From contig JASFQK010000018.1 in NCBI GenBank assembly GCA_050115495.1, positions 32,001 to 96,000 of the forward strand: a stretch of DNA of 64,000 bases, read 5' to 3'. Both the position numbers and the translations under genes were made by a program. This document shows, one piece after another, positions 31,764 through 60,997 of this stretch. How positions within the stretch are numbered: position 1 is the stretch's first letter; every line of letters begins with the position of its first letter. The stretch is from Phycisphaerae bacterium. Lineage in GTDB: Bacteria; Planctomycetota; Phycisphaerae; UBA1845; Fen-1342. A model generated the notes under the pieces. The model was not told the origin of the DNA, ran no database searches, and saw only the letters and a program-made list of their open reading frames with translations.

Positions 31764-34700
31764 CTACGGATTGAGCAGCAACTGGACGAACGGCGTGATG
31801 TCGAAGTTGTCGACGTTACCGTCGCCGTTGATGTCCGCGAACATGATGTCGCAACCGGGGTACTGCACCGCGTACTCGGTGGGGTTGGTCACCGCCAGCA
31901 CGAAGGGCGAGATGTCGAAGTTGTCGACGTTCAGGTCGCAGTTGAGGTCGCCGACGAGGCCCTCGAAAGGCACGAGCCCCCAGATCTGGACGTCGTCGAT
32001 GTTCCAGCCGGGATAGGTGACCGAGCCGTCCGTCGGGCCCATGCCCCAGCGGACGTAGACGGTCGCCTGGTGGTCGGCCACGGCCGAGATGTCGAAGGCC
32101 TGCTCGGACCAGGCCGAGTCGCTGATGGCCGTCGTGCTGGTGTGGTTCCAGACGGTCGTCCAGGCCGTGCCGTTGTTGGAGACCGCCACGTTCGCATGGT
32201 CGTACGTGGCGGATTCGACGCCCAGCCACCGCATGAAGCGCAGCTCGGTGTCGCTCACGTTCGAGCAATCCAGGGCCGACGTGGTGAGATACATCGTCGT
32301 GCTCATGTCATCCGGGTAGTCGCCGGCCAGGTTGTAGCCGTAGACGTTGGTGCCGGTGTACCCGCTGTGGGGGTCGTAGTTGTGGCTGCCGCCACCGGTC
32401 GGCTGACCGTACGCCCACTGGCCGGTCGTGGACCAACCGGGGTCCGTGTCGAAGTTGAACGCGTGGACCAGTTGCGGGCCGCCGACGGTGATGGACACCG
32501 TGGCGTCGAACGAGGCCTGCTCATCCTCGACGCGGTAGGTGAAGCTGTCCGGACCGACGTAGGTGTTCACCGGATCGTAGGTGACGGTGTCACCGCCGGC
32601 CAGCAGCGTGTACGGCACGGTGGTGATGGTGCCGCCGTTCGGATCGCGCAGGGCGCCGTTGGCCGGTAGGCTGACGATGACGTAGGTCAGCGGTAGGCCC
32701 TGGATGGACTCACCGTCGAGGGTGATCGGTCCGGGCAGAACCTCGGGCACGGTCACCGTGACGTCGTGCGCGATCGGCGGGCAGGTCTCGCCCAGCGGGA
32801 CGATACGCAGCGCCCAGCTATTGAGCGAGCCTTCGTCGGAGCCGGCGCTGTCCTGCACGGTCAGTGTCCAGGTGCCGTTGACGCCGAGGTAGTTGAAGTC
32901 GGCGAGGGCGCCCGGCCCGTCGGGCATGGTGCCGTCCTGCTCGTCGTAGGTGGTGACGATGTCCTCTTCGGTGCCGCCGGTGCGATTGTGCAGCACGACA
33001 CTGACGCCGGTGGGCGAGGTCAGCGTGACGGTGAGGTCACCGATGTAGGTGTGCGTGATGTCCATGTCGACGTCGACGTCACCGACGCAGTAGTGGTCGA
33101 CGACGTTGATCGTGCTGGTGATCGTGGTGTAGTCGTTGATGTCCTGCGGCACGTCGTTCGGCGTGTAGAGGACGCGGCCGACCTCAAGGAGGACGTCGCG
33201 GGTAGCGCTGCCCTCGCCGCTGGTCACGTTCACGAAGTTCACCGTACCGTTGTACATGCCGACCTCGAGGAGCTCGGCGGCGGCGGAGATGCCGACGGTG
33301 ACGGTGGCGGAGTCACCGGTGCCGTTGAGCACGAAGCTCAGCGGGTCGGTGTCGCCGTCGAGGCTGATCCAGTCCTGCGTGGCGGTGACTTCGACGGTCA
33401 CCGGCGTGGGCCGGAGGCTGGTCACGGTGTAGGTGACGAAGCCGGTGAAGGGGCCACCGAGCGGGCCGCCGGTCTGGAGGCCGTAGGTGGGATCGACACT
33501 GATGATGGTGCGGCCGACGTCGAGGACGACGGGACGCGTGGCGTTGCCGTCACCGGTGGTCAGGTTGATGAAGTCGACGACGGCCTCGTAGTGGCCGTTG
33601 CCGAAGGTGTAGGCCTCGGCGCCGAGGGCGACGGTGACGTAGACCTCGCCGTCGACGGGGATGGTGCCGGTGCCGTTGGTGATGTCAATCCAGGTCGCCG
33701 TGGTGGAGACGCTGTAGTCGAGCGGGGCGTCGGTGTTGTTACGGAGCGTGTAGACCTGGTTGTCGGGGTCGAAGGGACCGCCGGCCATACCCTCGGTCAT
33801 CAGGCCGCCGCCGGGGGTGACGCGCAGGTCAGCTCCGCCGCCGGGTTCGGGGATCCACAGGCTGGGATCGCCCATGAGGTTGTACATTTCGAAGTAGCGG
33901 CGGACGGTGCCGGGGTCGTCCTCGAAGTAGGGGGCGAAGAGGACCATGGCGGCCTGCCAGGCGGGGCTCACCTCGCGCTGGGGGTTCTCGGGATCGTAGA
34001 TGACGTCGAAGAGCTTCTTCTCGAGGATGTCGTCCTCATCCCAGTAACTGGAGACCGAGGAGCCGTACATGGTGGCGGCGCCTTTGTCTTCCTCGCGGAG
34101 CCAGGTCTCGGTGAAGCACTCGTTCTGATACTCGTAGTCGCCGGTCGAGCAGGCGAAGCTGCACACGAACGCGTAAAGCTGGTAGTTGAAGAGGTCCCGC
34201 ACGTTGGCCTGGGAGAACGCCGGACCGTCCCCCCAGCTCGTCGAGCCACCGTGGCCGGAGTAGATGCCGTAGACGCGGCCGTTGTTGAAGGCGTCGCTCA
34301 CCTGCTGGGTGGTCGCATTGTAGGTATGGCAATAGAGCTTGTCGGACGCGATCTCGTTCGGCACCATGTAGTTTTCGATGACGTAGTTGTGGGTGCCTTC
34401 ACTGACCTGGTAGTTGTCCTCCGAGGCCATGAAGACGGCGCGCGTGGCGTACTCGGGGTCGGCCCAGTTGCCGTCCTCGATGTCGATCGTCTTCTCGATG
34501 ATCGCCTCGAGCTCCTCGGGGGCGCGCACGGAGAAACGGCCGAGGGCGATGTCGGGGTAGTAATCGCTGCCACCGTCCATGCAGGCGTACTGGATATCGG
34601 TGTCGGGCGAGCCCGTGCCGCTGCCGGTCCAGGCCGGGATGGTATCCGTGTCACCCACCAGCAGGATGTAGGCCGGCGAATCCGCGCCGCCGTAGAGGCT

Positions 34701-35591
34701 GGCGATGTAGTTCTTGATGGTCGTGGCGCTCGTGCCCGCGGGAACCGTGTAGGTCTCGACGTCGTAGCCCTCGGCCGTCTTGTAGTTGGCGAAGGGGACG
34801 ATATCGTCGGCGTAGGCTTGGGCGACGACGATCAGGTAGTCATTGTCGGCGCGGCCGCTGACGACCGGCACCAGACTGGGGTTCAGCACGACGCTCTGGA
34901 GCACCGGCAGCGGGAGCACCTGGCTCATCTGCCCGCCGACAAACTGCACTTCCACGTCGATCTGCGGGTAGAAGACAACCTGTTCGGCCGCGGGGTTGTA
35001 GGCGACCGGCCAGATCTCGAGGACCATCAGGCGCTGGCCGCGCATGATGCCCAGCTCGCGGACGACGACGCGCTCGGTGCCGTAGTTCACGTTGCCGTAG
35101 GCCGCGGCGTCATAGACGAACTCGGCGTTGTCGGCGGCGCCGGGGATCTTGGGCAGGGGGGGCTGAACGGGAACGAGCCGAAGCTGCGTCCCGAGCAGGT
35201 CGCTGCCGAACGCGTGGCCGGCGCCGGTCCGGGCGCTGGCGGTCACTGCGGCGCCCAGCGGGGCGGTGAAGACCCGGCGGATCACCGGGACGGTGGGCTG
35301 ACCGTACGTGCCGGCCACTGCCGAGTCCGGCAGACGCACGCACGTGAACTCGCCGAGCTCGCTCTTGCGGTAGCTGAGAGCCAGACCGGGTGCGTCCACC
35401 GCAACGTGGAACCCGCCGCGGCCGAAGTCATCAACGGCCAGCGCGGGTGCCGCGGGCGGAGTCGCCTCCTTGATACCTACATCCCCTGACGGGCCGACCG
35501 TTACCCATTGGTCGGCGAGCGTCGCGCTTGTGCAACACAGGCCCAGGATCACCGGGGCCAACAATAGAAGCCACCTTCCTCGTGCGTGCAT
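31764..35591 (-). CDS. Gingipain-like C25 cysteine protease A: propeptide, catalytic domain, two BACON-like repeats, P-domain, Ig-like, jelly-roll, dockerin-like tail
   Basis: Signal peptide; propeptide GQPTVPV; YILLVGD, IALGRF, YSGHGG (His), SFACSTG (Cys), YNLMGDP; ITHTYIGDL...GTWTL..D P-domain; GWNIDD; duplicated GDLNCD/ADINGD loops; GGAGG RBS. Confidence 0.92.
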   Translation of the reverse strand: MHARGRWLLLLAPVILGLCCTSATLADQWVTVGPSGDVGIKEATPPAAPALAVDDFGRGGFHVAVDAPGLALSYRKSELGEFTCVRLPDSAVAGTYGQPTVPVIRRVFTAPLGAAVTASARTGAGHAFGSDLLGTQLRLVPVQPPLPKIPGAADNAEFVYDAAAYGNVNYGTERVVVRELGIMRGQRLMVLEIWPVAYNPAAEQVVFYPQIDVEVQFVGGQMSQVLPLPVLQSVVLNPSLVPVVSGRADNDYLIVVAQAYADDIVPFANYKTAEGYDVETYTVPAGTSATTIKNYIASLYGGADSPAYILLVGDTDTIPAWTGSGTGSPDTDIQYACMDGGSDYYPDIALGRFSVRAPEELEAIIEKTIDIEDGNWADPEYATRAVFMASEDNYQVSEGTHNYVIENYMVPNEIASDKLYCHTYNATTQQVSDAFNNGRVYGIYSGHGGSTSWGDGPAFSQANVRDLFNYQLYAFVCSFACSTGDYEYQNECFTETWLREEDKGAATMYGSSVSSYWDEDDILEKKLFDVIYDPENPQREVSPAWQAAMVLFAPYFEDDPGTVRRYFEMYNLMGDPSLWIPEPGGGADLRVTPGGGLMTEGMAGGPFDPDNQVYTLRNNTDAPLDYSVSTTATWIDITNGTGTIPVDGEVYVTVALGAEAYTFGNGHYEAVVDFINLTTGDGNATRPVVLDVGRTIISVDPTYGLQTGGPLGGPFTGFVTYTVTSLRPTPVTVEVTATQDWISLDGDTDPLSFVLNGTGDSATVTVGISAAAELLEVGMYNGTVNFVNVTSGEGSATRDVLLEVGRVLYTPNDVPQDINDYTTITSTINVVDHYCVGDVDVDMDITHTYIGDLTVTLTSPTGVSVVLHNRTGGTEEDIVTTYDEQDGTMPDGPGALADFNYLGVNGTWTLTVQDSAGSDEGSLNSWALRIVPLGETCPPIAHDVTVTVPEVLPGPITLDGESIQGLPLTYVIVSLPANGALRDPNGGTITTVPYTLLAGGDTVTYDPVNTYVGPDSFTYRVEDEQASFDATVSITVGGPQLVHAFNFDTDPGWSTTGQWAYGQPTGGGSHNYDPHSGYTGTNVYGYNLAGDYPDDMSTTMYLTTSALDCSNVSDTELRFMRWLGVESATYDHANVAVSNNGTAWTTVWNHTSTTAISDSAWSEQAFDISAVADHQATVYVRWGMGPTDGSVTYPGWNIDDVQIWGLVPFEGLVGDLNCDLNVDNFDISPFVLAVTNPTEYAVQYPGCDIMFADINGDGNVDNFDITPFVQLLLNP

Positions 35592-35905
35592 GTAAGTGTT
35601 CCTCCAGGTGCGATACAGCGAGCGAGCGCGGTATCCGCCGCGCCGCGAAATCAATCCCGGCTAACCCCCCGTGAAGACCATACTCGGAACCGTAATCAGC
35701 AGAGCGTACGTGTAGTGCAGACCCATCACGGAGTTGTCCATCCCATGCTCCGTTCCCCACGACCGGCTGGGCGCAGCGCACAGTCGATCGTTCCATTATC
35801 GCCTGTCGTCGTCGTAGACTCAAGCGGATCGGCGTGGGTTGGCGCCAGTGCATTTGCGCACCACCGCCCACACCCGGTAATCGGGATACGTGTTATAGGA
35901 TGGGC

Positions 35906-35920
35906 GCAGTTATCGGGCCA
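35906..35920 (-). promoter_or_regulatory. Possible sigma54 (-24/-12) promoter of C25 protease A
   Basis: Minus strand TGGCCCGATAACTGC has GG-N10-GC spacing; a TATAAC box at 35892-35897 is an alternative. Confidence 0.4.
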
Positions 35921-35958
35921 CCGGCAGGAAGGCCGTGCGGATTCCCCCTCTCGGCTGT

Positions 35959-35991
35959 CCGGGTGCCGGCCGGGGCGGCCGGCACCCGGGA
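35959..35991 (-). terminator. Hairpin after C25 protease B
   Basis: CCGGGTGCCGGCC...GGCCGGCACCCGG inverted repeat; no U tail. Confidence 0.5.
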
Positions 35992-36009
35992 GTCCACTCA
36001 CTCAGCTAT

Positions 36010-38802
36010 TCAGGGGACGAGCAGGTTGACGAACGGACTGATGTCAAAGTTGTCCACGATGTCGTCGCCGTTCACGTCCGCCAGGTCGCGGTCGCAGCCG
36101 GGGTACAGGTCGTAGTACTCCGGGTAGTCCGGCGCGGTGGCGTTCAGGGCCACCACGAAGGCCCGGATGTCGAAGTTGTCGACAAGGCCGTCGCAATTCA
36201 GATCACCGACGGTGTACTCCGGTTCGCCCGGCAGACCCCAGATGGCCACGTCGTCGATGTTCCAGCCGGAATACGCCCAGGCGGCGCTGCCGATGCGATA
36301 GCCCCAGCGGACGTAGACGGCCAGCTGATTGTTGGCCAGGGCCGAGATATCGCAGGTGATCGGCGTCCAGGCGCTGTCCGTGATGGCCGTGTTGGCGTTG
36401 GCCCAGACTTCGGTCCACGTCGTGCCGTCGACGGAGACCTCGACGGTGTTCTTTACGTACGGCTGGTAGTCGCTGTTGAGCCAGCGCTGGAAGCGGACGC
36501 TCGTTTCGGTCAGGCCGGTGAGGTCGACCGGGCCCATGCTCAGGTAGTAGGGCCCGCCGGGCGTGACCGAGTAGTCGCCGCTGAGGTTGACGCCGTAGAC
36601 GTAGGCACCGGTGGCGCCGGCGGTCGGGTCGGGGTTGGGATGCAACACGCCGCCGCTGCCGGCCGGCTGGCCGAAGGCCCACTGCCCCATGGCGGACCAG
36701 CCGGGGTTCTCGTCGAGCGGCCAGGTGAGCAGGCTGGTGGGGACGCCGACCTTGAGCGTGATGAGGCGGGTGGCATCGCCGACGTGCGAGGTCTCATTGA
36801 CGAACTCGACGGTGGCGACGTACGTGCCGTAGCCGAAGCTGTTGGCCGTGCTGTTGACGGTGACGGTGACTTCGGCGGTACCGTCGACGGGCAGCGTGCC
36901 CGCGCCGTTCCCGACGGTGACCCAGGTCTGGTCGGCGGTGGCCGAGTAGGTGAGCGGCTCGTCGGTGTTGTTGGTCAGCGTGTAGGTGACGCCGTCAGGC
37001 GTGAAGGGGCCGCCGGGCTGACCCTCGGCGATGAGGCCGCCGGCCGGATCGATGGCGAGATCGACGGCGCCGGGGCCGGGCAGGTAGAGGCTGGGGTCGC
37101 CCATGAGGTTGTACATCTCGAAGTAGCGGCGGGTGGTGCTGCCCGAGCCGAAGTATTCGAGGTAGCGGACGAGGGCACCCTGCCAGGCGGGGCTGACCTC
37201 GCGCTGCGGGTTCTCGGGGTCGTAAATGACGTCGAAGAGCTTCTTCTCGAGGATGTCGTCCTCGGTCCAGTAGCTGTTCACGGAGGAGCCGTAGATGGCG
37301 ATGGCGCCCTTGTTCTCCTCGCGGAGCCACGTTTCGGTGAAGCACTCACTGGCCGTGAACTGGCCGGTGACGCAGGCGAAGCTGCACACGAAGGGGTAGA
37401 GCTGATAGTTCGTCAGGTTGCCGACGTCGCTCGCGGAGAACGGCGGGCCGTCGCCCCAACTGGTCGTGCCGCCGTGGCCGGAGTAGATGCCGTAGATGCG
37501 GCCGTCGTTGAAGGCGTTGCGGACCTGCTGCATGGTCGCGTTGTAGGTGTGGCAGTAGAGCTTGTCCGACTCGATACCGTTGGGAATCATGTAGTTGTTG
37601 ATGACGTAGTTGTGTGTGCCCTCGCTGACCTGGTAGTTGTCCTCCGAGGCCATGAAGACGGCTCGCAGGACGTAGTCGGGATCGGCGAACAGGCCCAACT
37701 CGAAGTCGATCGTCTTCTCGATCATGTTCGTCAGATCCGTGGGACTCTGCGTCGAGAAGCGGCCGATGGGGATGTCCGGGTACCAGTCGGTGGTGCCGTC
37801 CATGCACACGTAGTTCAGGTCGGTCGCCGGCGAGCCGGCGCCGCCGCCGGTCCAGCTCGGGATCGTGTTCGTGTCGCCGATCAGGAGCACGTAGTCCGGC
37901 GAATTGGCGCCGCCGTACAGGCCGGTGATGTAGTTCTTGATGGTCGCGGCGCTGGCGCCGGCGGCCACTTCCTGCACGGTGACGTTGAAGCCCTGGTTCT
38001 GTTTGAAGGTGACGAAGTCGCCGATCTGGCCGGCGTAGGTGCTGGCCACGAGGATCAGGTAGTTGCCGCCACGGCTGCCGAGCCCCGCGGGCAACAGCGA
38101 CGGATTCGCCACGACGCCCGCCAGCCCCGCCGGAGCCGACATCGTCGCGGGCGTTCCGCCGGCGAAGGACACGTTGACGACGGTGCGCGGATACAGGGTG
38201 ACCTGCTCGGTGGCGGTGTCGTAGGCGACCGGCCACACCTCGAGCAGCATCAGCCGCTGGCCGTGCATCACGCCCAGCTCGGTGACCGTCGCGCGCGCGG
38301 TGCCGTAGCTGATGCCGGCGTAAGCCTGTGCGTCGTAGATGAACGGGGCGTTCTCAATCGCTCCGGGGAGCTTCTCGATCGGCGGCTGCACGGGGGCGAG
38401 CAGCAGGCGGCGACCGACGGCGGCGGCGTCGAGCACCTCCAAGCCTTCGGTCTGCACGTCGAACGTCACGGTCGCGTCCGGTGGCGCCACGAAGATCCGG
38501 CGAACCACCGCGATCCCCGGTGCGCCGATCTGCCCGGCGAGCGGGCTGTCCGGCAGCGTCAGTTCCACGAACGTACCAGCGTCGGTCTGCTGATCGATCA
38601 GCTCCAACCCGAGCACGTCCACCATGAGCTCGAAGCCCTCGCGGCCGTCGTCCTGCACCTGGACGTACGGTGCCTGGGCAGGGGCCATCTGCGGCTGCCC
38701 GGTGCCGACCGGCAGCCAGTCGCCGGCCACAGCCCCGGCCGGGATCAGCAGTATGAGAGCCATGATCGACAAGCTCAGCCGCCATCCACATCGCACATGC
38801 AT
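36010..38802 (-). CDS. Gingipain-like C25 cysteine protease B: propeptide, catalytic domain, BACON-like, jelly-roll, dockerin-like tail
   Basis: Paralog of 31764..35591; YSGHGG, SFACVTG, YNLMGDP; GDLNCDG/ADVNGD loops; GGAGG RBS. Confidence 0.92.
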   Translation of the reverse strand: MHVRCGWRLSLSIMALILLIPAGAVAGDWLPVGTGQPQMAPAQAPYVQVQDDGREGFELMVDVLGLELIDQQTDAGTFVELTLPDSPLAGQIGAPGIAVVRRIFVAPPDATVTFDVQTEGLEVLDAAAVGRRLLLAPVQPPIEKLPGAIENAPFIYDAQAYAGISYGTARATVTELGVMHGQRLMLLEVWPVAYDTATEQVTLYPRTVVNVSFAGGTPATMSAPAGLAGVVANPSLLPAGLGSRGGNYLILVASTYAGQIGDFVTFKQNQGFNVTVQEVAAGASAATIKNYITGLYGGANSPDYVLLIGDTNTIPSWTGGGAGSPATDLNYVCMDGTTDWYPDIPIGRFSTQSPTDLTNMIEKTIDFELGLFADPDYVLRAVFMASEDNYQVSEGTHNYVINNYMIPNGIESDKLYCHTYNATMQQVRNAFNDGRIYGIYSGHGGTTSWGDGPPFSASDVGNLTNYQLYPFVCSFACVTGQFTASECFTETWLREENKGAIAIYGSSVNSYWTEDDILEKKLFDVIYDPENPQREVSPAWQGALVRYLEYFGSGSTTRRYFEMYNLMGDPSLYLPGPGAVDLAIDPAGGLIAEGQPGGPFTPDGVTYTLTNNTDEPLTYSATADQTWVTVGNGAGTLPVDGTAEVTVTVNSTANSFGYGTYVATVEFVNETSHVGDATRLITLKVGVPTSLLTWPLDENPGWSAMGQWAFGQPAGSGGVLHPNPDPTAGATGAYVYGVNLSGDYSVTPGGPYYLSMGPVDLTGLTETSVRFQRWLNSDYQPYVKNTVEVSVDGTTWTEVWANANTAITDSAWTPITCDISALANNQLAVYVRWGYRIGSAAWAYSGWNIDDVAIWGLPGEPEYTVGDLNCDGLVDNFDIRAFVVALNATAPDYPEYYDLYPGCDRDLADVNGDDIVDNFDISPFVNLLVP

Positions 38803-39035
38803 GACCACACCTCCACCAGTTGGACCCAACGGTCGGCGGCGACCAAGCGCAGTCCTCGCGCATGGCCGGCGGCCGATTCGAGTGAAAAAGGGAAACAGCA
38901 CCTCTGTAGTCCGAGACTTCGCGCGGATCGTGCCCCGCGTCGGGGACGCGCGCTTCTGCCCGCCGTCAAGCTGATTGGACCATCCCAGGCGCGTGACCAT
39001 GGCGCCCACGCCTTCAACCTGCCGGCTCGACCGTC

Positions 39036-39064
39036 ATTATCCCGGCTCCGCCCCAGGCATACAA
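39036..39064 (-). promoter_or_regulatory. Putative sigma70 promoter of C25 protease B
   Basis: Minus strand TTGTAT-N17-GATAAT. Confidence 0.55.
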
Positions 39065-39208
39065 CAGATTTCGGCGGATTTCCGGCCTTGCGTCACGCCG
39101 GTGACGACCTTCGCCGCCGCTGGAACTGGACGGGCGCAGCCACGCAGGTACCATAAGCTGCTGTTGTTGACCGGCGCATCCAGCCGCACGCGAACTGAGC
39201 GATCCGAT

Positions 39209-40213: not shown

Positions 40214-40236
40214 GGCCCGGCGGCGATGGGGGTTGC

Positions 40237-41139: not shown

Positions 41140-41157
41140 GGTTCGTCACTCGCCGGA

Positions 41158-41964: not shown

Positions 41965-41975
41965 GCGCTGCTCCT

Positions 41976-48734: not shown

Positions 48735-48769
48735 GACATGTGTATCATGCCACAGGCGCCCGGCGGACG

Positions 48770-51238: not shown

Positions 51239-51271
51239 CGCAGAATCCGTCGTGGACCGTTGCCGATGCCT

Positions 51272-51383: not shown

Positions 51384-51475
51384 GTGTTCCTGTTCCACCA
51401 GTGTTGGGAATTATCTCACAAGCGCAGACGCCCGATCCGCCCGTGTCGCGGGATTCGCGACGAGATAGTCCCGTG

Positions 51476-53641
51476 TCACGGTAGCTCGCGATACGGCCGG
51501 CCGGCCTGGTAGTAGACCAGGTAGCCGCGAATTGTCGCCGCCAGCGCCTCTTTGTCGGCGGCTGCGGCGCGTTCGGCGGCGCGTATGGCCGTCTGCGTCG
51601 CGGCGGGATAGTCGCCCGTCTCGGCCTGAGCGGCGGCGAGGGCGACCTGCGATTCAATTTCCGGCTCACCCGCTGTGTCGCAGCTCAGCCTCGCCAGACG
51701 CAGCGCCTCCGCGCCGTCACGCAGCTCCGCATCCCAGGCGGTGGCCAACACCCAGGCCAGCGTGCGGGCCAGGTCGCGGTTGTTCGGACGACCAGCCACC
51801 GCTGGCCGGAGTACATCCAGCGCCGCCTGCGTGTCGCCCGCCGTCAGCAGCAGCGTGCCCAGCCGCAGCGCCGCTTCCGCGGAGTTCGGATCGGCCGCGA
51901 GCTGCTGCCGGCACTTCTCCATCTCGCCGTGACGCTGCTGGGCATACGTCGCCAGCCGGGTGAGCAACTCCTTCGCGTCGGGGTACTTCTCGTCGAGGGC
52001 CATGCCTCTCTGGCAGGCCGCCGCCGCCTGGGCGAGCCGCCCGCGCGTGCCCAGTGTGATGGCCAGCTCGATGTTGGCCTCGGCCGACTCCGGGTGCATG
52101 GACACGGCCCGCAGCAGCATGGCCTGACTGTCGACCAGGCGGCCGGCGAGGCGATAGGCCTTGCCCAGTCCGAGCACCAGGACGAACGACTCTGGGCTGC
52201 GCTTGACCGCCGGTTCCAGCAGGGAGATGGCCTCCGCCCCCTCGTTGTTGACGATGTGATATTCGGCCATGCGGAAGTCGTGGTCGATGTCTGCCATGTC
52301 CCGTGGGTTCTTCAGGTTGCTCGTTTCAACCGGCGCAGGGGCCCCGCCGACGTAGCCGAGACTCTGCAATCGCGCCAAGCCCTCGGCGTCCATGACCACG
52401 CTCGCTCCCTCGCGTTGCCGCATCGCAGCTTCGAGTGCGGCGAGTGCGGCTTCCATGTCCTCAACGATCTCTGGGTGGTCCGCTGCGATGTTGTTCAACT
52501 CGCCGCGATCAGTCGCCAAGTCGTACAGCTCGATCTGGGGGGCACGGATATACTTCCAGTTGCCGTCGACGAGGCAACGCAGCTTGCTCCAGCCGAAGTT
52601 GTGGAAGCCGTAGTCCGACTCGCCGTAGCTGCTGCGCGGCGCCAGCGTCCTGCCCACGAGGGCCGGCAGGAAGCTCTCGCCACTGACTTCCGCCGGGATC
52701 GGCTGCCCGATCAGCTCGAGGACCGTGGGCATCAGGTCGATCAGCCGCACGGTGTCGGCCCGCACCTGGCCTTCGGGAATCCGCCCCGGTAGGGAGACGA
52801 TCAACGGCACGCGCATCATCGCGTCATAGGCCAGCAGCGAGTGCCACAGATACCGGTGTTCTCCGAGCGATTCGCCGTGGTCGCCGACGGCGATGATGAG
52901 CGTCTTCTCGCGCAGGCCGTTCGCACTGAGCCACTCCATCACACGGCTGATCTGGGCGTCCACGAAGGCGATCTCGCCGTCGTAGCCGTCGCCGGCCGCT
53001 TTCTCGAGGTAGGCCGTCGGCGGCGTGTAAGGTGTGTGCGGGTCGTAGAAATGCAGCCAGCCCATGAAGCGCTGATCCTTCACCCGCGTTAGCCAAGCCA
53101 GGCCGCGGTCGACGACCAGATCGGCGCTGATCTCCTCGCCTCTTGGGCTGGAGGCGATGCTGACCATATCGTCTTCGTAGACCTCGAAGCCGCGGTCCAG
53201 CCCGAACCGGCTGTCGAGCACGAACGATGCCAGGAATGCGGCCGTTCGGTAGCCCTGGTCGCGGAGTATCTGGGCGAGCGTACGCAGGCCGGGGGCGAGT
53301 GAGTCGGGTCCGTTGTCCCGCAGGCCGATCTCGGCCGGGTAGCAGCCGGTGAGCATCGTGCCGTGTGACGGCAGCGTGATGGGTACCTGCGTGAAGGCGT
53401 TGGTGAAGTGCACGCCGCGGTGGGCCAGGTCGTCGAGCGCCGGCGTGACCGCGCGTTCCCAGCCGGCGAAACCGAGGTGGTCGGCGCGGGTCGTGTCCAA
53501 CGTCAGCAGCAGGATGTTGTAGCCGGCCAGACTTCCCTTCAGTGCCTCGGGGGTGTTCGGCGGCGTCGAGCGGTTGCAGCCACAGAACAGAGGGGCGACA
53601 GCAAGGAACAAGATCAACAGAGCGTGCGTACAGCGGTGCAT
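51476..53641 (-). CDS. Sulfatase/alkaline-phosphatase-superfamily lipoprotein with C-terminal TPRs
   Basis: Lipobox LFCGC; LDTTRADH, VPITLPSH, HFYDPHTPY, YDGEI, GDHGE, ELYDL..D.GE, LQSLGY; start at 53641 or 53650. Confidence 0.88.
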   Translation of the reverse strand: MHRCTHALLILFLAVAPLFCGCNRSTPPNTPEALKGSLAGYNILLLTLDTTRADHLGFAGWERAVTPALDDLAHRGVHFTNAFTQVPITLPSHGTMLTGCYPAEIGLRDNGPDSLAPGLRTLAQILRDQGYRTAAFLASFVLDSRFGLDRGFEVYEDDMVSIASSPRGEEISADLVVDRGLAWLTRVKDQRFMGWLHFYDPHTPYTPPTAYLEKAAGDGYDGEIAFVDAQISRVMEWLSANGLREKTLIIAVGDHGESLGEHRYLWHSLLAYDAMMRVPLIVSLPGRIPEGQVRADTVRLIDLMPTVLELIGQPIPAEVSGESFLPALVGRTLAPRSSYGESDYGFHNFGWSKLRCLVDGNWKYIRAPQIELYDLATDRGELNNIAADHPEIVEDMEAALAALEAAMRQREGASVVMDAEGLARLQSLGYVGGAPAPVETSNLKNPRDMADIDHDFRMAEYHIVNNEGAEAISLLEPAVKRSPESFVLVLGLGKAYRLAGRLVDSQAMLLRAVSMHPESAEANIELAITLGTRGRLAQAAAACQRGMALDEKYPDAKELLTRLATYAQQRHGEMEKCRQQLAADPNSAEAALRLGTLLLTAGDTQAALDVLRPAVAGRPNNRDLARTLAWVLATAWDAELRDGAEALRLARLSCDTAGEPEIESQVALAAAQAETGDYPAATQTAIRAAERAAAADKEALAATIRGYLVYYQAGRPYRELP

Positions 53642-53832
53642 GCCAAGCATCCTTTCGCGACGTCAAGCGTCAACTCAAATGCGCAGCTTATCAGAATCAG
53701 CGACACGGAGGTATCCTCATGGTCACCGCTGGATTTGCGACGTGGGTGGACCTGCTCTTAGAATAGCCCGTACGCTTGCCCCGCGTGCCGTCGGTTGGTG
53801 CGTGGCTATGCGCAACCCACGCGAGACCGCCG

Positions 53833-56037
53833 ATGCCTCGCAGGAAGAGTCGCGGTACCCCCAGCACTGCGGGCCCGGTTCCCGCCCCGGTCAGTCGGCC
53901 TTGGGCCGCCCGGCGGTTCGTGGCCGTTCTCCTGGTGATGATGCTCGCGGCCCTTGGCCTGCGCATCGTGATACTCGTCGACTATGTGGCCCACAATCCC
54001 CTGGCAGGCACGCCGATCAACGATGCCGCGGCCTATTGGCAGTGGTCGGCTCGCGTCGCCGGCGGCAAGCTGGTTGAGGACGCGCCATTCTTCTCCGCTC
54101 CGCTGTATCCGTATCTGCTGGGGGCGTTGCGGGCGCTGGGTGGGGGGCTGATCGCGGTATACATCATCCAGATGCTCCTGGATCTGGTCACGGGTGTCGT
54201 GCTGGCCGTGACCGTTCGGGAACGCTTCACGCCTGGGACTGGCCTGGTGGCTGCTTCGCTCTACTGGCTCCTGCTCGCGCCGGCGTCCTTCTCTCTGCGC
54301 GTGCTGACTTGCTCGCTGCAGCTTCTCCTGCTGGCTTGTGCGTACCGCCAGCTTGTTCGCGTCCAGGCGCGGCCGATCTTGTCGCGGCGCATCGGGCTCG
54401 GTGCGGTCCTCGGGCTGCTGTGTCTCTCGTACCCGCCGGCGATGATGCTGACCGTGCTAGTCGTGCCGTGGCTGTTCTGGCAGTCGGGCCGCAGGCTCGC
54501 CGACGCCGGTCGGGCGCTCGTGCCGTTGGGGATGGCGGCGGTGGTGATCGCGCCGGCGACCATCCACAACTGGTACGCCAGCAGGGGGGATCTGTTCCTG
54601 ATCCAGTCCGTCACCGGCGTGAACCTGCGACAGGGTAACCAGCCGGAGTCGACGGGCGGCTTCACGCCCATTCCCGGTACCAGCCCCAACCGCGAGAACA
54701 TGTTTCCGGACCTGGCTCGCCAGTACGAGGAATCCACGGGCCAGCCGGTGCGCTGGAGCGCGATCGACCGACGCTACCGCGATGAGGTGATTCGCTTCTG
54801 GCTCGCTGATCCGCTGCGCACGGCTCGGCTCGTGGTGACCAAGCTGTATTGGTTCCTGTCGGCGAGGAACTACGGCGACATCTACCTGCCCGCCGTGGAG
54901 ATCACGGAGGGCCTCAGTCGCGGCTTGCGACTGGCTCCGCTACGCGTGGCCTGGCTCATGGGGCCGGCCCTGGTCGGATTAGTGCTGCTGCTCAGGCGGC
55001 CGATCCGGTACGGTCCCGAGTGGCTCCCCTTCCTGATCTCGCTGATCACCGTGGCCGTCTTCTGGTACAACCCGCGCTATCGCCTGCCGGCTGTGCCCGC
55101 GATCGTCATCGTCACTGCATGGCTTGTGGTGCGGGCGGCGGACTGGCGAACGCACTGGCGGCTGACCGCGGCGACGGTGCTGGCCGTGGCGGCGAGCCTG
55201 ATGCTTGGCGTGGTGAACCGCGCCGTCAGCTTCGACGTCCCGAATGCGCCGGCGCTGTCACTCCCGGTGGCCGGTGTCCTCGAGAAGCAGGGCCGGTTGG
55301 CTGAGGCGGTCGAGCAGTGGCGCAAGGCCGCCGACCTCAACCCGCAGAACCCGGACGTCCGCGAGCATCTCGGCGATGTGCTCCAGAAGTCCGGCCGGAC
55401 GGACGAGGCGCTGGCTGTGTACGAACGCGTCTGGGCGCTGTCGCCGTCACCCGGTGTGGTCGGCAAGCTCGTCCAGATCCTGGTGGCTGCGAAACGGCCG
55501 GATGATGCCGAGCGCGTCCTGGAGCAAGCGCTCGACCAGCAGCCCGATCAGGCGACGCTGCTGGCGATGCTCGCCAGATTGCGCCAGGCTCAGGGCCAGC
55601 TCGACGTGGCGGAGGAGCTCTACGGGCGAGCAGCCGCCCTGGCTCCGGACGATGTGACGGTGCGGTCGGCGTACGGCACACTCCTGATGAGCCGGCAGCG
55701 CTGGGCGCAAGCACAGGTCGAGTTCGCGGCGGTCGCGGAGCTGTCGCCGGACGATTTCGATGCGCAGAACAACCTGGGCGTGATCTGGGGTGAACTCGGC
55801 GATTTCGATCGGGCCCGCGCGTGTTTCGTGAGAGCAGCCGAAATCCGCCCGAACGATGCCGGTGCATTGTTCGCCGTCGGCGTTGTGGACATGCGAGCCG
55901 GCCGATTGGACGATGCCGAGCAGTTCTTCCGGCGGGCGCTCACCCTTCGCCCCGACGACGAGCGCTACCGCGCAGCGCTGGACCACGTGCAGCAATTGCG
56001 AAAGCAGCGAGGCACGTCAACGCAACCGACCCCGTAG
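53833..56037 (+). CDS. GT-C fold (ArnT/PMT-like) membrane glycosyltransferase with C-terminal TPRs
   Basis: INDAAAY acidic loop, PLYPYLL, about 11 TM, GVNL..GN, RYRLP; TPR array after the last TM. Confidence 0.85.
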   Translation: MPRRKSRGTPSTAGPVPAPVSRPWAARRFVAVLLVMMLAALGLRIVILVDYVAHNPLAGTPINDAAAYWQWSARVAGGKLVEDAPFFSAPLYPYLLGALRALGGGLIAVYIIQMLLDLVTGVVLAVTVRERFTPGTGLVAASLYWLLLAPASFSLRVLTCSLQLLLLACAYRQLVRVQARPILSRRIGLGAVLGLLCLSYPPAMMLTVLVVPWLFWQSGRRLADAGRALVPLGMAAVVIAPATIHNWYASRGDLFLIQSVTGVNLRQGNQPESTGGFTPIPGTSPNRENMFPDLARQYEESTGQPVRWSAIDRRYRDEVIRFWLADPLRTARLVVTKLYWFLSARNYGDIYLPAVEITEGLSRGLRLAPLRVAWLMGPALVGLVLLLRRPIRYGPEWLPFLISLITVAVFWYNPRYRLPAVPAIVIVTAWLVVRAADWRTHWRLTAATVLAVAASLMLGVVNRAVSFDVPNAPALSLPVAGVLEKQGRLAEAVEQWRKAADLNPQNPDVREHLGDVLQKSGRTDEALAVYERVWALSPSPGVVGKLVQILVAAKRPDDAERVLEQALDQQPDQATLLAMLARLRQAQGQLDVAEELYGRAAALAPDDVTVRSAYGTLLMSRQRWAQAQVEFAAVAELSPDDFDAQNNLGVIWGELGDFDRARACFVRAAEIRPNDAGALFAVGVVDMRAGRLDDAEQFFRRALTLRPDDERYRAALDHVQQLRKQRGTSTQPTP

Positions 56038-56063
56038 CGTCCCTCGGCTGCCGTGGCGCCACG

Positions 56064-56175
56064 ATCTCGAATCTGAAATCTCAGATCTCAGATCTCAGAT
56101 CCCCACGCTATGCGCCGTGCCCCGTCGATCGTCAGGGCACGTTCGCCCTCGCAAACTTCTGACTTCTGACTTCCG
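56064..56175. repeat. Two short heptamer tandem repeat tracts
   Basis: ATCTCGA ATCTGAA (ATCTCAG)x3 ATCCCCA at 56064-56105; ACTTCTG ACTTCTG ACTTCCG at 56155-56175. Confidence 0.8.
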
Positions 56176-56193
56176 TCTCCCTCTTCTCCCCCG

Positions 56194-58485
56194 TCACCGA
56201 AAGATCTTGGTGATATCCTGAATCGTCACCAGCAGGAACACCAGGACGATCGTCGCCAGGCCGACCAGCGTGGCGATCGTCTGCGTCTTGATGCTCAGCG
56301 GCTTGCCTTTGATCTTCTCGATGATGAGGAAGACCATCAGCCCGCCGTCCACGACGGGGAAGGGCAGGAAGTTGATCACGGCCAGGTTGACCGAGAGGAA
56401 GGCCAGGAAGTACAGCAGCTCGGCGTAGCCGACGCGGGCCCGTTGCACTGCCGCACTGACGATGCCGACCGGCCCGGACACGTGCTTGACCGTGTTGGAC
56501 CGGCCGCCGCCGATGCTGCGCGTGAGCGTGCGCAGCACGCCGTAGACCTCGGCGAGCACGTCGCCGGTGGCCTCGATGCCGAGCCAGGCGGCGCGGATGG
56601 GGTTATTGGTTTGGATGATCAGGTCGTGTGCTTTGAAGGGCAGGTCGGGGTTGCCGAAGACGACGCACAACTGCCACGGATTGACGTTGCTGAGGTCTTT
56701 CCGCACGTGGAAGTCCGCCTCTTCGAGCTTGAGTTCGCCGACGCTGCGCTGGTAGCGGACCTTCACCGTTTGGCCGGGGTACTTGGCCAGCATGGCGCGG
56801 ATAGCCACCCACTTCGGCAGGTCGGCGATGGTCCCGTCCGCCAGTTCCACCTCGGTTTCGTTGTTGATGGCGACGATCCGGGACATCAGCGGCAGGTGGA
56901 GCTCGTTCACCACGCTCGACGGCACGTCCAGCGACCCGGTCACCTCGACGTCGCCCGTCCGGTACGTCACCGATATGGTCCGGTCGGCGGCCGCCAGCAA
57001 AGTGCGGATCACATCGAGCCAGTCCTTCACCGGCTTACCGTCCACGGACACCAGCGTGGAGCCGCGCGGAATCTTCAAACTGGCCGCCGGCGTGTTGTCG
57101 ACGACGTCGGCCACCACCGGCGGGCGGTCTTCCGGCTTGAACGCGATGCCGGCCCGGGCGGTGGGCGTGCCCGTAAGCTGGAACGGCCGGCGCGGCGTCA
57201 CCGTCAGTTCGACGCGCTCGCCGTCCCGCAGCACGACGACCGGTATGGGCTTGCTCGCATTGGCCTCGATGCTCGCCTTGATCTCCGGGAAGCACGGCTG
57301 CAGCACCGACCCCCACTGGACGATCACGTCTTCGGGCCGCAGCCCGGCCTTCTCGCCCGGCTCACCCGGCGTGACGGCGTCCACGCACTGGCGTGGACAG
57401 AGCCCGAGCACGTGCGCGGGTTCGAGAGGGGCCGGCGAATCGGCCGAGGGCATCTGGGCCGAACCGAGACGGAAGATGACGGGCATCGTCGTGGTGTGCG
57501 TCGTTTTCTCGCCGGGGTGCGCGGGATCGGGCCGTTCGAAAGTGACCTCGACGCGGGAGAGCCCTTTCTCCACCGCCAGGTCGTTGAACGCCAGCAGCAC
57601 GTCGGCCGCACGGCTCACGGGCCGGCCGCCGACCTTGGTGATCCGGTCGCCGCCCTGGAGGCCGTACAGGTTGGTCGTGCCGGTCGTGTCCATGAGCTCG
57701 GTCGTGAGGTCCGGGCCGATCCCGGTGGCGTCGAGCGGATCGTCCTTGTTCTTGTTGGCCTGGATGTGCAGCGGCTCAGGCAGGAGCTTGCCGTCGCGGC
57801 GGGCCTCGAAATTCACCTCGCCGTTGTCGGCCAGGATCAGGGCGATGACGACATCGCGGAAGGTTTCGACCGGCTTGCCGTCGGCCGAGACGATGATGTC
57901 GCCCGATCGCAAGCCGGCCTGGGCCGCGGGGCTGTCGGCCTCGAGGACGCCGATCTGCGGCGCCATCGTCCGCTTGCCGATCATGAACACGCCCATGAAG
58001 ACGAGGATGGCGAAGAGCAGGTTGAACAGGACGCCGGCCGAGACGACGATCATGCGCCGGCCCACGGGCTTGTTGTTGAAGGCCCGTGGGTCGTCGGTCA
58101 TCTTCACTTCGCCGGTCTTGTCGTTGACCTGGATGTCGTCCTGGCCAAGCATCTTCACGTAGCCGCCGAGGGGCAGGAGCTTGAAGCAGTAATCTGTTTC
58201 GCCCCAGCCGCGCTCCTGAAGCTCGTCCAGCGAATAGGCCGGCCGGCCGCCGAGGGTGAACCCCTCGCCCGGACGCCAGCCGAACAGCCGCGGGCCGAAG
58301 CCGATGGCGAAGCGGTCGACGCGGATGCCGACCCACTTGGCCGCGAGGAAATGCCCCAGCTCATGCACGAAGATGATCAGCGAGAAGCCGATGACCACCT
58401 TGGCCACGACGTACGTTGTATCCAGCCAGGGCGGTACCTGGGCGATCAGGTTGCCGCCCCACATTGCGATCAGACCCCAATGCAT
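56194..58485 (-). CDS. rseP: Site-2 intramembrane metalloprotease with multiple PDZ domains
   Basis: HELGH, LPLGGYVKM, AGVLFN, several PDZ domains, SGPVGI, NFLPFPVVDGG; follows dxr. Confidence 0.93.
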   Translation of the reverse strand: MHWGLIAMWGGNLIAQVPPWLDTTYVVAKVVIGFSLIIFVHELGHFLAAKWVGIRVDRFAIGFGPRLFGWRPGEGFTLGGRPAYSLDELQERGWGETDYCFKLLPLGGYVKMLGQDDIQVNDKTGEVKMTDDPRAFNNKPVGRRMIVVSAGVLFNLLFAILVFMGVFMIGKRTMAPQIGVLEADSPAAQAGLRSGDIIVSADGKPVETFRDVVIALILADNGEVNFEARRDGKLLPEPLHIQANKNKDDPLDATGIGPDLTTELMDTTGTTNLYGLQGGDRITKVGGRPVSRAADVLLAFNDLAVEKGLSRVEVTFERPDPAHPGEKTTHTTTMPVIFRLGSAQMPSADSPAPLEPAHVLGLCPRQCVDAVTPGEPGEKAGLRPEDVIVQWGSVLQPCFPEIKASIEANASKPIPVVVLRDGERVELTVTPRRPFQLTGTPTARAGIAFKPEDRPPVVADVVDNTPAASLKIPRGSTLVSVDGKPVKDWLDVIRTLLAAADRTISVTYRTGDVEVTGSLDVPSSVVNELHLPLMSRIVAINNETEVELADGTIADLPKWVAIRAMLAKYPGQTVKVRYQRSVGELKLEEADFHVRKDLSNVNPWQLCVVFGNPDLPFKAHDLIIQTNNPIRAAWLGIEATGDVLAEVYGVLRTLTRSIGGGRSNTVKHVSGPVGIVSAAVQRARVGYAELLYFLAFLSVNLAVINFLPFPVVDGGLMVFLIIEKIKGKPLSIKTQTIATLVGLATIVLVFLLVTIQDITKIFR

Positions 58486-59621
58486 TCATGTACCTCTTGC
58501 CGCGCCCAGGCATCTGCGCTGAGCAGATCCGCCAGCGTCGGGCTTTTCACCACTTCATGCCGTCGCAGGGCTCGCTCGGCCAGTCGGGCGATCTGCCCGA
58601 AGGGGATCTCGCCGGCCCGGAACCGCTCCACCGCCGCCTCGTTCGCCGCATTCAGCACGGCGCCGGCACTGCCCCCCAGCTCGGCGGCATCATGTCCGAG
58701 GCGCAGGGCCGGAAATCGCTCGTAATCGGGGGGCTCGAAGCGCAAACTGCGGCCCACCTCCCAGTTCAGCGATTCGGCCAGGCCCGATACCCGCTGGGGG
58801 TACGTCAAAGCATATTGTATCGGCGTTTTCATGTCGGGCGTGCCGAGCTGGGCGATTACCGAGCCGTCACAGAATTCGACCATCGAGTGGACGACCGATT
58901 CCGGGTGCACCAGCACCTTGATCCGGTCGGGCTCCAGGCCGAACAGCCAGTGGGCCTCGATGATCTCGAGCGCCTTGTTCATCATCGTAGCGCTGTCGAT
59001 CGTGATTTTGGGCCCCATAGACCAGGTCGGATGCTGGAGGGCTTCCTGGATGGATGCAGTCTCAATCCGCTCGCGGGGCCAGGTGCGGAAGGGGCCGCCC
59101 GAGGCCGTCAGGTAGATGCAGCGGACCTCTTCGCCGCGGCCGCTTTGCAGCGACTGGAAGACTGCCGAATGCTCGCTGTCCACCGGCAGCAACTGGCTGC
59201 CGCGCTCGCGGGCCAGGGGGATGAGGATCGAGCCGGCAACGACCAGCGATTCCTTGTTGGCCAGGCCGACGTCCAGGCCGCGATCGACCGCGGCCAGCGT
59301 GGCCGGCAGTCCCGCCGCCCCGACGATCGCCGCCAGCACGAAATCAGCGTCAACCGTCCGGACCAGCTCGACCAGACCATCGGCGCCGGCGAAAACACGC
59401 GTGCCCCCCGGACAGGCCCGGCGCAGGTCGGCAGCGTGGCCTTCTTCAGCGATGGCCACCGCCGGCACCGAGAACGCCGTCGCCTGCTCGGCCAGACGTT
59501 GCCAGCCCCGGCCGGCGGCCAGACCCACGACGGCGATCTGGTCACGCAGCGCCCCGACGACATCGAGGGCCGAAGTGCCGATCGAGCCGGTCGAGCCCAG
59601 AATGATCACGCGCTTCTGCAC
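58470..59621 (-). CDS. dxr: 1-deoxy-D-xylulose 5-phosphate reductoisomerase
   Basis: LGSTGSIG, LANKES, PVDSEHSA, TASGGPF, HPTWSMGPKITIDSATMMNK, NAANE. Confidence 0.97.
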   Translation of the reverse strand: MQKRVIILGSTGSIGTSALDVVGALRDQIAVVGLAAGRGWQRLAEQATAFSVPAVAIAEEGHAADLRRACPGGTRVFAGADGLVELVRTVDADFVLAAIVGAAGLPATLAAVDRGLDVGLANKESLVVAGSILIPLARERGSQLLPVDSEHSAVFQSLQSGRGEEVRCIYLTASGGPFRTWPRERIETASIQEALQHPTWSMGPKITIDSATMMNKALEIIEAHWLFGLEPDRIKVLVHPESVVHSMVEFCDGSVIAQLGTPDMKTPIQYALTYPQRVSGLAESLNWEVGRSLRFEPPDYERFPALRLGHDAAELGGSAGAVLNAANEAAVERFRAGEIPFGQIARLAERALRRHEVVKSPTLADLLSADAWARQEVHECIGV

Positions 59622-59704
59622 GCGGGTAGTATAATCGCCCCTTGGGCCACGTCTGCCCCGGCGTGGCCTTTTGCGTCCGCATCGTGCCGCCCCGACCGAC
59701 CGCC

Positions 59705-60997
59705 CTAATTCTCCAGCAGCAGCTTCACGAAGGGGGTGATGTCGAAGTTGTTCACGACGCCGTCCTTGTTGATGTCCGCAAACGTGTGCGGGCAGTCCGG
59801 GTGGGCGGACGTATAGGCGGCCGGGTTCGTCAGCGCCAGCAGGAACGGGGCGATGTCGAAGTTGTCGATCGTCCCGTTACAGTCCACGTCGCCGCGCGGC
59901 GAGCGGATGCCGTGCTTCGCGGCACAGGTCAGGGCGTTGTCGCAGAGCAGGAAGTCCAGCGCATCGATGTTGTCCGCCTCGTGACCCAGCCCAAGCTCGG
60001 CCGCCGACACCAGCACGCGCGGCGACTGTCCCGGCATGACAATGAACACGTCGGCTGCGGAACCCGTGTTGCTGGTTCCGGGGATCGACGTCAGCGACGG
60101 TGAGCCCGGCGCCAGCGAGAACAGCACCACGTCCGTCCCGTCAAAATCGTGGTTCTGGTTGCCGTCGAACACGATCAGGGCGTCGATGTCGTCCTCGCGG
60201 AGCAGGCCGAGCTCCTCGTGCGAGGCATACAGCGCGATCGGCAGATCCGCCTGCGGGTTCGGGTCAAAGCAGATGTCCGCCCCGCTGGGCTGGCCGAAGC
60301 TGGGGAGCGTGCGCAGCGACGGCGAACTCGTCGTGATCGAGTAGCAGACGTTGATCACGCCGTCGTCGCTACGGTCGAGGTAGGCCATGCCGTTGACAGT
60401 GTCCACCGGTTCGCCCACGGTGTTCTCGTAGCTCGAGCAGGGGGGCTGGCCGCCGAAGTCCGTACCGCCTTCGTCGAAGTTGGCCCGCGTCAGCAGCGTG
60501 TTGGCCGGCCCCTCGGCTACGCCGAAGTTGAGGGTGATCAGCCGCGTGGACATGAACTGGTCCCCCGCAGCGTGCCCCCGCGCCGCCTGATCGGCCACGT
60601 TATAGGGCACGTTCATCGCCGCGAGGTTGCCGTCCGGCGGAGCTACGCCGACCGTGTTCTCGTCCACCGATAGCAGCAGGACGAACGACCGTTGGACGCC
60701 GATGGCCGGGTACGGGGTCGAGAGCGCGTCGAGGTCGTCCTCGGGGCTCCATAGCCCCAGGTCGGCCCGCGCGACGAGCACCACCGGATTCGGGAAATCC
60801 AGCGTCAGAACGTCGCCTGAGTCGCAGACGCCTTCTCCCACCGCCCAGGACCCGTAGTTGAATGAATAGTCCGGGATGGGCAGCGGCTCCATCGGTTCGC
60901 TCGCCCGGGCCAGCCAGCCAGCGGTCAGCGCCAGAACCAGCGCGATCGCCAGTCGACCTCCGGACCCCGCAATACGTTCATATGTGACCTTCATCAT
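59705..60997 (-). CDS. Secreted protein with three LGL...D.IDAL repeats and a dockerin-like tail
   Basis: Signal peptide; LGLWSPEDDLDAL, LGLLREDDIDAL, LGLGHEADNIDAL; GDVDCNG/ADINKDG loops; RBS GGAGGAGG. Confidence 0.85.
   Translation of the reverse strand: MMKVTYERIAGSGGRLAIALVLALTAGWLARASEPMEPLPIPDYSFNYGSWAVGEGVCDSGDVLTLDFPNPVVLVARADLGLWSPEDDLDALSTPYPAIGVQRSFVLLLSVDENTVGVAPPDGNLAAMNVPYNVADQAARGHAAGDQFMSTRLITLNFGVAEGPANTLLTRANFDEGGTDFGGQPPCSSYENTVGEPVDTVNGMAYLDRSDDGVINVCYSITTSSPSLRTLPSFGQPSGADICFDPNPQADLPIALYASHEELGLLREDDIDALIVFDGNQNHDFDGTDVVLFSLAPGSPSLTSIPGTSNTGSAADVFIVMPGQSPRVLVSAAELGLGHEADNIDALDFLLCDNALTCAAKHGIRSPRGDVDCNGTIDNFDIAPFLLALTNPAAYTSAHPDCPHTFADINKDGVVNNFDITPFVKLLLEN

Follow-up and report, generated by a model that had tools for sequence, protein, structure and literature searches.

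A dockerin-type tail on secreted planctomycete proteins and Coh-E, a predicted cohesin that is its candidate receptor

The window analysed here is a stretch of 64,000 nucleotides on contig C18 of a genome that we denote G000 and that probably belongs to the class Phycisphaerae. It harbours three genes for secreted proteins that end in the same Cys-containing, dockerin-like tail. We consider it probable that this tail is a Ca2+-dependent dock, by which its cargo proteins are attached to a single-domain, exosortase-anchored protein of predicted cohesin fold, denoted Coh-E, as the candidate receptor. The initial annotation of this DNA had recognised the tail and proposed one shared receptor or scaffoldin for it, either in a proteolytic surface complex or in an anchoring pathway parallel to PEP-CTERM.

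The tail and its recognition code

The tail pattern of the initial annotation is real. All three tails are encoded on the minus strand, comprise 62-65 residues and end at the stop codon, and each has two Asp-rich Ca-loop repeats with NFDI in both, as well as two aligned Cys residues. G000 is an assembly of 5.97 Mb in 85 contigs (66.7% G+C, 92% complete), and the nearest Atlas cluster of the tail is mostly composed of Planctomycetota. Among the matches listed for GatB of G000, the best ones with a name belong to Planctomycetota and Phycisphaerae, with 55-58% identity. A genome-wide count with a hidden Markov model of the tails, as the initial annotation had suggested, detected 178 tail domains on mixed cargo in 165 open reading frames (ORFs) of G000 at an independent E-value ≤ 1e-3. 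As the best match among reversed ORFs used as decoys reached only E 0.095, this number is far beyond chance. The tail is C-terminal in 150 of the 165 ORFs, and there are also copies at the N-terminus, inside the protein or in runs of 5-6. Signal peptides are predicted, by a loose heuristic, for 137 of the 165 tail ORFs versus 715 of 1676 controls.

The cargo was characterised by a Pfam scan of 101 of the 157 tail proteins of at least 200 residues (63 at E 1e-6 and 38 at E 1e-4). Peptidases make up 28 of the 101 (12 C25, seven S8, four C1, two M14 and one each of C10, M28 and M10). They stand beside 12 proteins with beta-helix or PMP repeats, five with BNR or sortilin repeats and three amylolytic proteins; about one-third had no match, and no cellulase family was found among the 101. 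With peptidases accounting for only this share of a mixed cargo, the proteolytic complex is not supported as originally worded. As for the C25 peptidases themselves, all nine G000 proteins that match a narrow C25 profile carry the tail.

A few unusual architectures deserve mention. Two adjoining genes (G000:C9:91018-94414) code for secreted proteins of 5-6 dockerin repeats with TSP3-like spacers, possibly multivalent cross-linkers. At five loci (G000:C34:74508-80081, C69:6368-12019, C67:3585-5327, C74:1581-3080 and C82:1989-3458), several of them on short contigs, a dockerin lies in or just before a sequence that we take from its motif to be of the RHS/YD-repeat type. Lastly, a PETase-like alpha/beta hydrolase (G000:C13:108027-111149) has an N-terminal dockerin directly after its signal peptide.

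The tail is a dockerin-fold module according to its AlphaFold model, which was obtained with a pLDDT of 97.8. Nearly all rows listed by Foldseek for this model are clostridial or ruminococcal cohesin-dockerin entries. The dockerin chains of 6kgc-6kgf match it with TM 0.72-0.75 and probabilities of 0.99-1.00, the E-values of 0.05-0.4 being weak because the query has only 62 residues. In a PDB search by sequence, the six best matches were also dockerin-bearing chains. The available profiles only graze the tails of the window. With the Dockerin_1 profile PF00404, one of the three proteins scores 20.4 bits (cut-off 22.9) and two have no match, and several paralogues exceed the cut-off; with the GC-type dockerin profile NF041540, the three tails give 20.1 bits, 15.3 bits and no match (cut-off 29).

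In type I dockerins, positions 10 and 11 of the repeats are the most important for recognition. Among the 163 full copies of the tail in G000, 138 have NF at these positions in both repeats, with positions 8 and 15 being freely variable. The random variation among genomic copies that the initial annotation regarded as a sign against a recognition code is thus not what we found. Third-position identity at four-fold sites among the tails is 0.49 versus 0.41 expected, and therefore the conservation of NF does not stem from recent copying. The two Cys residues co-vary as well: both are present in 129 of the 163 tails, both are absent from 31, and only three tails are discordant, which points to a disulfide. 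Many of the approximately 31 tails without the usual Cys pair have a CxxC motif in the linker instead, and NF is kept in most of them.

For comparison, each profile was searched in 60 relatives of G000, 36 of which belong to the same family. We call tail-rich the 27 family relatives with at least 34 tail matches per genome and tail-poor the nine with 0-4 matches; counts in relatives were scored only up to approximately 103. Genome G030 (99% complete, seven contigs), which has at least 150 tails, uses (V/I)L as the second-repeat code in 30 of the 31 best-scoring tails read, and the codes of other relatives are AF, VF, GF, FF, SY, FD, FA or FG, as read from one to five tails per genome. This letter pair, conserved within a genome and changing between genomes, looks in sequence as expected of a species code for one shared receptor. 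Symmetric, species-specific recognition is indeed described as the rule for type I dockerins (PMC12484212). The reasoning of the initial annotation, from a common NF code to one shared receptor, is borne out to the extent that NF is under selection within G000 and altered between genomes.

Coh-E, a candidate receptor with a PEP-CTERM tail

We first met the Coh-E family among the small tail-bearing proteins of G000. Two anchored copies are encoded in tandem outside the window (G000:C31:43279-44124 and C31:44486-45289), each with a signal peptide, one Coh-E domain and a PEP-CTERM tail, and a third copy is tail-bearing (G000:C18:117326-118309). The domain comprises approximately 200 residues, with insertions. 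In a structural search of 48,161 chains with its predicted structure (pLDDT 80, pTM 0.80), the 14 best matches were all cohesins (Z 7.6-9.1, rmsd 3.0-3.4 Å over 120-135 residues), the best one with Z 9.1 and an rmsd of 3.0 Å over 131 residues. Coh-E is thus predicted by its model to have the beta-sandwich fold of cohesins. Foldseek ranked N-terminal domains of GH123 first and many cohesins lower, all of them weakly. None of 37 Coh-E members matches the Pfam Cohesin profile (PF00963), and a profile-profile comparison revealed no relation with Coh-B, another cohesin-like family described below. Divergent cohesins that profiles miss and structure prediction reveals have been reported before (PMC11557425).

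The anchored copies have a signal peptide, a PEP motif, a transmembrane helix and a basic end. Their scores with TIGR02595 are 20.1 and 18.4 bits (cut-off 16), and G000 has an exosortase gene (TIGR02602, 134 bits, cut-off 105.6). On these features, anchored Coh-E is predicted to be a substrate of the PEP-CTERM/exosortase system. Among 65 Coh-E copies that were fetched, 46 end in PEP-CTERM and six in a dockerin-like pattern, and 13 are unclassified or cut. The anchored copies are 64-96% identical within a genome and only 28-41% between species of the genus, and the tail-bearing orthologue evolves more slowly, with 51-63% identity between more distant species. RNA contigs with at least 99% identity cover both anchored Coh-E genes of G000 in two runs (X1 and X2) from two studies; runs X3 and X4 cover small shares only. 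Contig depth in X1 (80-196 on pieces of Coh-E and 3-6 on pieces of Coh-A, with little cover on Coh-B and on neighbouring housekeeping genes) was not used as evidence, since it allows no ranking of genes and the Coh-E stretch itself had served to find the runs.

Coh-E follows the tail among the relatives. In four rounds of profile search, it was detected in 8, 14, 19 and then 24 of the 36 family relatives, all of them tail-rich, and G007 came in with a deeper search. In total, Coh-E was thus detected in 25 of 27 tail-rich versus none of nine tail-poor family relatives (nominal Fisher p 6e-7, a value that is overstated as kin are not independent). The same deeper search in all nine tail-poor genomes gave one weak match only, in G027 (E 0.055); it was dropped, its frame having neither a signal peptide nor PEP-CTERM. 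G030 has 10 Coh-E matches beside its tails. As for the tail-poor relatives, GC-type dockerins (NF041540) have 30-54 matches in four of the five that were examined, so that these bacteria appear from their sequences to have changed tail type. We also observed that Coh-E is expanded in G021 (17 matches) and G033 (19), one pair of G033 lying approximately 2.5 kb from gatB.

The docking model and its alternatives

The following sequence of events is in our view the most probable one. The cargo would be exported by Sec, and its tail would fold with two Ca2+ ions and one disulfide staple. Exosortase would process Coh-E, whose PEP-CTERM tail would fix it to the cell envelope, and the tail of the cargo would dock through its NF face onto Coh-E. 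One anchor would hold one cargo, the identical code of the two repeats probably allowing two orientations. Rather than a scaffoldin-built complex, this would give a one-socket-one-plug coat, in which peptidases and amylases stand beside adhesin-like and uncharacterised proteins. The tail-bearing copies of Coh-E and Coh-B might in addition allow chaining, or a link to a stalk module made of Coh-A, X-dockerin and Coh-B. As the candidate receptor itself carries a PEP-CTERM tail, the system looks dependent on PEP-CTERM, and not parallel to it as the initial annotation had supposed. A wider generalisation is that, in this family, most of the secretome outside PEP-CTERM, often at least 100 proteins, is displayed by one species-coded dockerin on fast co-evolving, exosortase-anchored cohesins absent from profile libraries, in a scaffoldin-free, self-recognising system of diderm bacteria. 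This we advance only tentatively, leaning slightly towards doubt.

Several observations weigh against docking on Coh-E. A tree of GatB, a single gene analysed by a quick search in 42 genomes, placed eight of the nine tail-poor and 22 of the 28 tail-rich family genomes. The eight tail-poor ones form two groups inside one weakly supported clade, so that possibly only one to three independent events underlie the co-occurrence; any gene lost in the tail-poor lineage would give the same pattern. The Coh-E profile was, moreover, iterated on matches from tail-rich genomes. It found no match in tail-rich G002 and G003, which are 84-91% complete and fragmented, nor in G037, G047, G055 and G057, which lie outside the family and have 12-41 weaker tails, and the 1-19 Coh-E matches per genome show no clear relation to tail number. 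As for the structure, the best Z of 9.1 exceeds only moderately the range of 7-8 that the tool calls 'common', the first non-cohesin has Z 7.6, residues 89-121 of the model are unreliable, and a cohesin fold alone is no proof of dockerin binding. Lastly, the docking model gives no route for cargo and anchor across the outer membrane. The Coh-E tree falls into two subfamilies, which for the most part match the place of the aromatic residue in the tail, position 10 or 11, with three changes. This is only a hint, as the label was chosen post hoc, most genomes are represented by one to five tails, and the genomes partly cluster in this way on GatB too.

The window itself shows no cohesin with any profile used, as the initial annotation had stated, and the search of the genome for cohesin-like proteins that it recommended revealed several families elsewhere in G000. 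PF00963 finds two cohesins above cut-off. After iterated searches, Coh-A comprises seven proteins, all of which combine one cohesin with an X-module that has a dockerin of another type; in most of them, HYR-type stalk repeats separate the two parts. Coh-B comprises three proteins, which end in PEP-CTERM, a GC-like dockerin or the NF tail. Coh-C comprises six, all ending in PEP-CTERM, and is called a cohesin from its appearance and from the weak PF00963 match of a relative (E 0.035). A sequence search of the PDB gave no cohesin match for Coh-B or Coh-C. All these proteins, like the three Coh-E proteins, have a single cohesin-like domain each, and no multi-cohesin scaffoldin was found in G000, 92% complete as it is. 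The proposal of the initial annotation is thereby divided: a cohesin-fold candidate for the receptor exists, and a scaffoldin with several cohesins does not appear. A different family of this order has a candidate for a true multi-cohesin protein, with 859 residues and four Coh-A matches (G055:C5:60517-62697). Coh-D (G000:C6:128464-129462), a conserved, secreted, tail-bearing domain of approximately 195 residues, occurs in 45 of the 60 relatives. It was rejected as the receptor, being present in 31 of the 36 family relatives whatever their tail type, and the copies inspected end in the tail and not in an anchor.

Coh-A and Coh-B were our first receptor candidates. The tail might bind Coh-A, or Coh-B, on stalked adaptors tethered via Coh-B-PEP-CTERM, as in the published planctosome model (PMC6461901). 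All seven Coh-A proteins end in X-dockerin, their 10 PDB sequence matches are all scaffoldin cohesins, and their architecture resembles the adaptor described there (PMC6461901). One locus (G000:C38:14735-31087) even sets in a row two Coh-A/X-dockerin proteins, Coh-B-PEP-CTERM, Coh-B with a GC-like dockerin and two NF-tailed peptidases. These candidates were nevertheless set aside, since their presence does not track the tail. Coh-A occurs in 15 of 27 tail-rich and five of nine tail-poor family relatives and Coh-B in 13 of 27 and five of nine (Fisher p = 1.0 each); Coh-C, in 14 of 27 and three of nine, does not track the tail either and was likewise rejected. Twelve tail-rich family relatives lack Coh-A, among them the near-complete G030, in which no Coh-A, Coh-B, Coh-C, X-dockerin or PF00963 match was found. 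Coh-A and Coh-B track each other instead (among the 36 family relatives, 18 have both, two Coh-A only, none Coh-B only and 16 neither), and from this distribution Coh-A, Coh-B and X-dockerin travel together as a separate stalk module. Coh-B proteins bear whichever tail type their own genome uses, and the Coh-A paralogues are diverse (21-58% identity to the first) despite the uniformity of the tail. We thus regard docking on Coh-A or Coh-B as quite improbable.

Alternatively, the tail might be a sorting or secretion signal for a non-cohesin machine, by analogy with the C-terminal domain (CTD) of the type IX secretion system (T9SS), or it might bind the envelope directly in place of PEP-CTERM. 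Its mostly C-terminal position would suit such a signal, as would the 12 of 124 PEP-CTERM proteins that match tail-bearing proteins, the occurrence of both Coh-B and Coh-E with either ending, and the GC-type dockerins found instead in most of the tail-poor relatives examined. Yet proteins would be expected to exchange this tail for PEP-CTERM also where both lead to the same surface. The N-terminal, internal and 5-6-fold copies suit a binding module better than a cleaved signal, and the genome-specific code suits a co-evolving protein partner, so that we deem a sorting signal unlikely. The tail might also be an orphan module that binds Ca2+ or self-associates without a dedicated receptor, with Coh-E being an unrelated, lineage-specific surface protein. 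The existence of genes for 5-6-repeat dockerin proteins and the few independent events behind the co-occurrence would fit this idea. It leaves unexplained why positions 10 and 11 are strict within genomes and different between them while synonymous sites are near saturation, for which a selective partner is needed, and why a cohesin fold should be predicted for just the family that follows the tail. An orphan module seems to us about as improbable as docking on Coh-A or Coh-B.

Docking on Coh-E, if true, would account for the retention of secreted peptidases and other enzymes at the cell in these bacteria, and it would link exosortase anchoring to cohesin-dockerin docking. For protein assembly, it would also offer many natural, orthogonal pairs of plug and socket (NF, AF, VF, GF, SY, VL, FD, FG and others). 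If false, the tail is a familiar type of module in a familiar type of host. Many dockerin-like tails of these planctomycete genomes have no cohesin in sight, as exemplified by G030, which has at least 150 of them and not one Pfam cohesin. With a specific candidate family named, two small recombinant proteins would suffice for a test of docking.

Genes of the window and comparison with known systems

The three tail-bearing genes of the window, all on the minus strand, start at 35591, 38802 and 60997, with GGAGG upstream of each and signal-peptide-like N-termini. The first (31764..35591) codes for a secreted gingipain-like C25 peptidase of 1275 residues, identified by Pfam, catalytic-type motifs and inspection of its start site. 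Its layout comprises a signal peptide, a propeptide, the C25 catalytic domain (33858..34838; PF01364, E 5e-55), a P-domain, Ig-like and MAM-like domains and the C-terminal NF-type dockerin. The latter (31764..31952, 62 residues and stop, from translation), whose model was described above, matches a Clostridium acetobutylicum dockerin in Foldseek with TM 0.74. The second gene (36010..38802) codes for another secreted C25 peptidase, of 930 residues by Pfam and motifs, with its catalytic domain at 37087..38061 (PF01364, E 4e-55) and an NF-type dockerin translated from 36010..36207 (65 residues and stop), which has a four-residue linker insertion. Both peptidases have the His and Cys catalytic-type motifs and share 69% identity in the catalytic region. 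The third gene (59705..60997) codes for a secreted protein of 430 residues with no assigned function, three short Asp-rich repeats and a C-terminal NF-type dockerin (59705..59893, 62 residues and stop). Apart from the sub-threshold Dockerin_1 score of 20.4 bits given above, it has no Pfam match, and it has one paralogue (G000:C44:26095-27495). Its start overlaps by four bases (ATGA, shared by stop and start) with a Ser/Thr kinase-TPR gene (60994-63711, minus strand), which suggests from the sequence that the two are translationally coupled. Elsewhere in the window, four tandem PEP-CTERM genes lie at approximately 10360-15790 on the plus strand (G000:C18:42361-47782). Three of them have an N-terminal domain in common, and two have PPC-like or cleaved-adhesin-like matches.

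The tail resembles the T9SS CTD of gingipains (TIGR04183) as a C-terminal tag on C25 peptidases. The T9SS CTD is a beta-sandwich, unlike the tail, which is predicted to be all-helical with Ca loops. TIGR04183 and SprA had no match in G000, in searches whose controls were weak and themselves gave no positive above cut-off. With the GC-type dockerin (NF041540), the tail shares its C-terminal position, its dockerin-like character and its many copies per genome, although the window tails remain under the cut-off of 29.

The closest known relatives by fold are the type I cohesin-dockerin pairs of clostridial cellulosomes (PF00404/PF00963; PDB 6kgc, 6kgd, 1ohz, 3ul4 and 4dh2), with which the tail shares the duplicated Ca-loop-helix fold. 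In those cellulosomes, OlpA and OlpC are single-cohesin surface anchors, and Coh-E, as predicted, would resemble them in having one cohesin per surface-anchored protein. Symmetric recognition positions and a species-specific code are further features in common with clostridial type I pairs (PMC12484212). In contrast to clostridial cellulosomes, the host is diderm, PEP-CTERM takes the place of SLH, the NF code is hydrophobic and the tail has a Cys pair. Further differences are the cohesin of approximately 200 residues with insertions, undetected by Pfam, the lack of any multi-cohesin scaffoldin found and the absence of cellulases from the 101 scanned cargo proteins. With such mixed cargo and no multi-cohesin scaffoldin found, the term 'protease cellulosome' overstates the system.

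The idea of a proteolytic cohesin-dockerin complex has been published for Phycisphaerae before: Andrei et al. (2019) hypothesised a peptide-degrading 'planctosome' of cohesin and dockerin modules in the Nemodlikiaceae, freshwater Phycisphaerae (PMC6461901). Both systems are hypothesised to display peptidases, and Coh-A resembles the dockerin-HYR-cohesin adaptor of the planctosome, with another dockerin type and domain order (PMC6461901). The planctosome peptidases are given as M12B and M14 (PMC6461901), of which we found none and two, respectively, among the 101 scanned proteins. Its anchor is described as a protein with lamin-tail, P-domain, TSP3 and cohesin, in a system of few parts (PMC6461901). 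The cohesin-like proteins of G000 that were among those scanned with Pfam had no lamin-tail match, no genome-wide search having been aimed at this domain. Unlike the planctosome, the present system has its tag on approximately 165 proteins, its cohesin-HYR adaptors do not track the tag, and a PEP-CTERM cohesin is the candidate anchor. In Candidatus Stygibacter (Cloacimonadota), Williams et al. (2021) described C-terminal dockerins on C25, S8 and GH57 enzymes, together with a multi-cohesin scaffoldin of 3,755 residues with a CTD anchor (PMC8542988), for which we found no counterpart in G000.

The terms 'cellulosome' and 'PEP-CTERM' are absent from a class-wide genomic survey (PMC11266412). In the full-text literature, which mostly does not cover subscription papers, we found no paper joining PEP-CTERM with cohesin and dockerin and none on the Coh-E family. 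Set beside these known systems, the tail and its candidate partner are best read as cohesin-dockerin display without a multi-cohesin scaffoldin, to which Coh-E, as candidate receptor, adds the new part.

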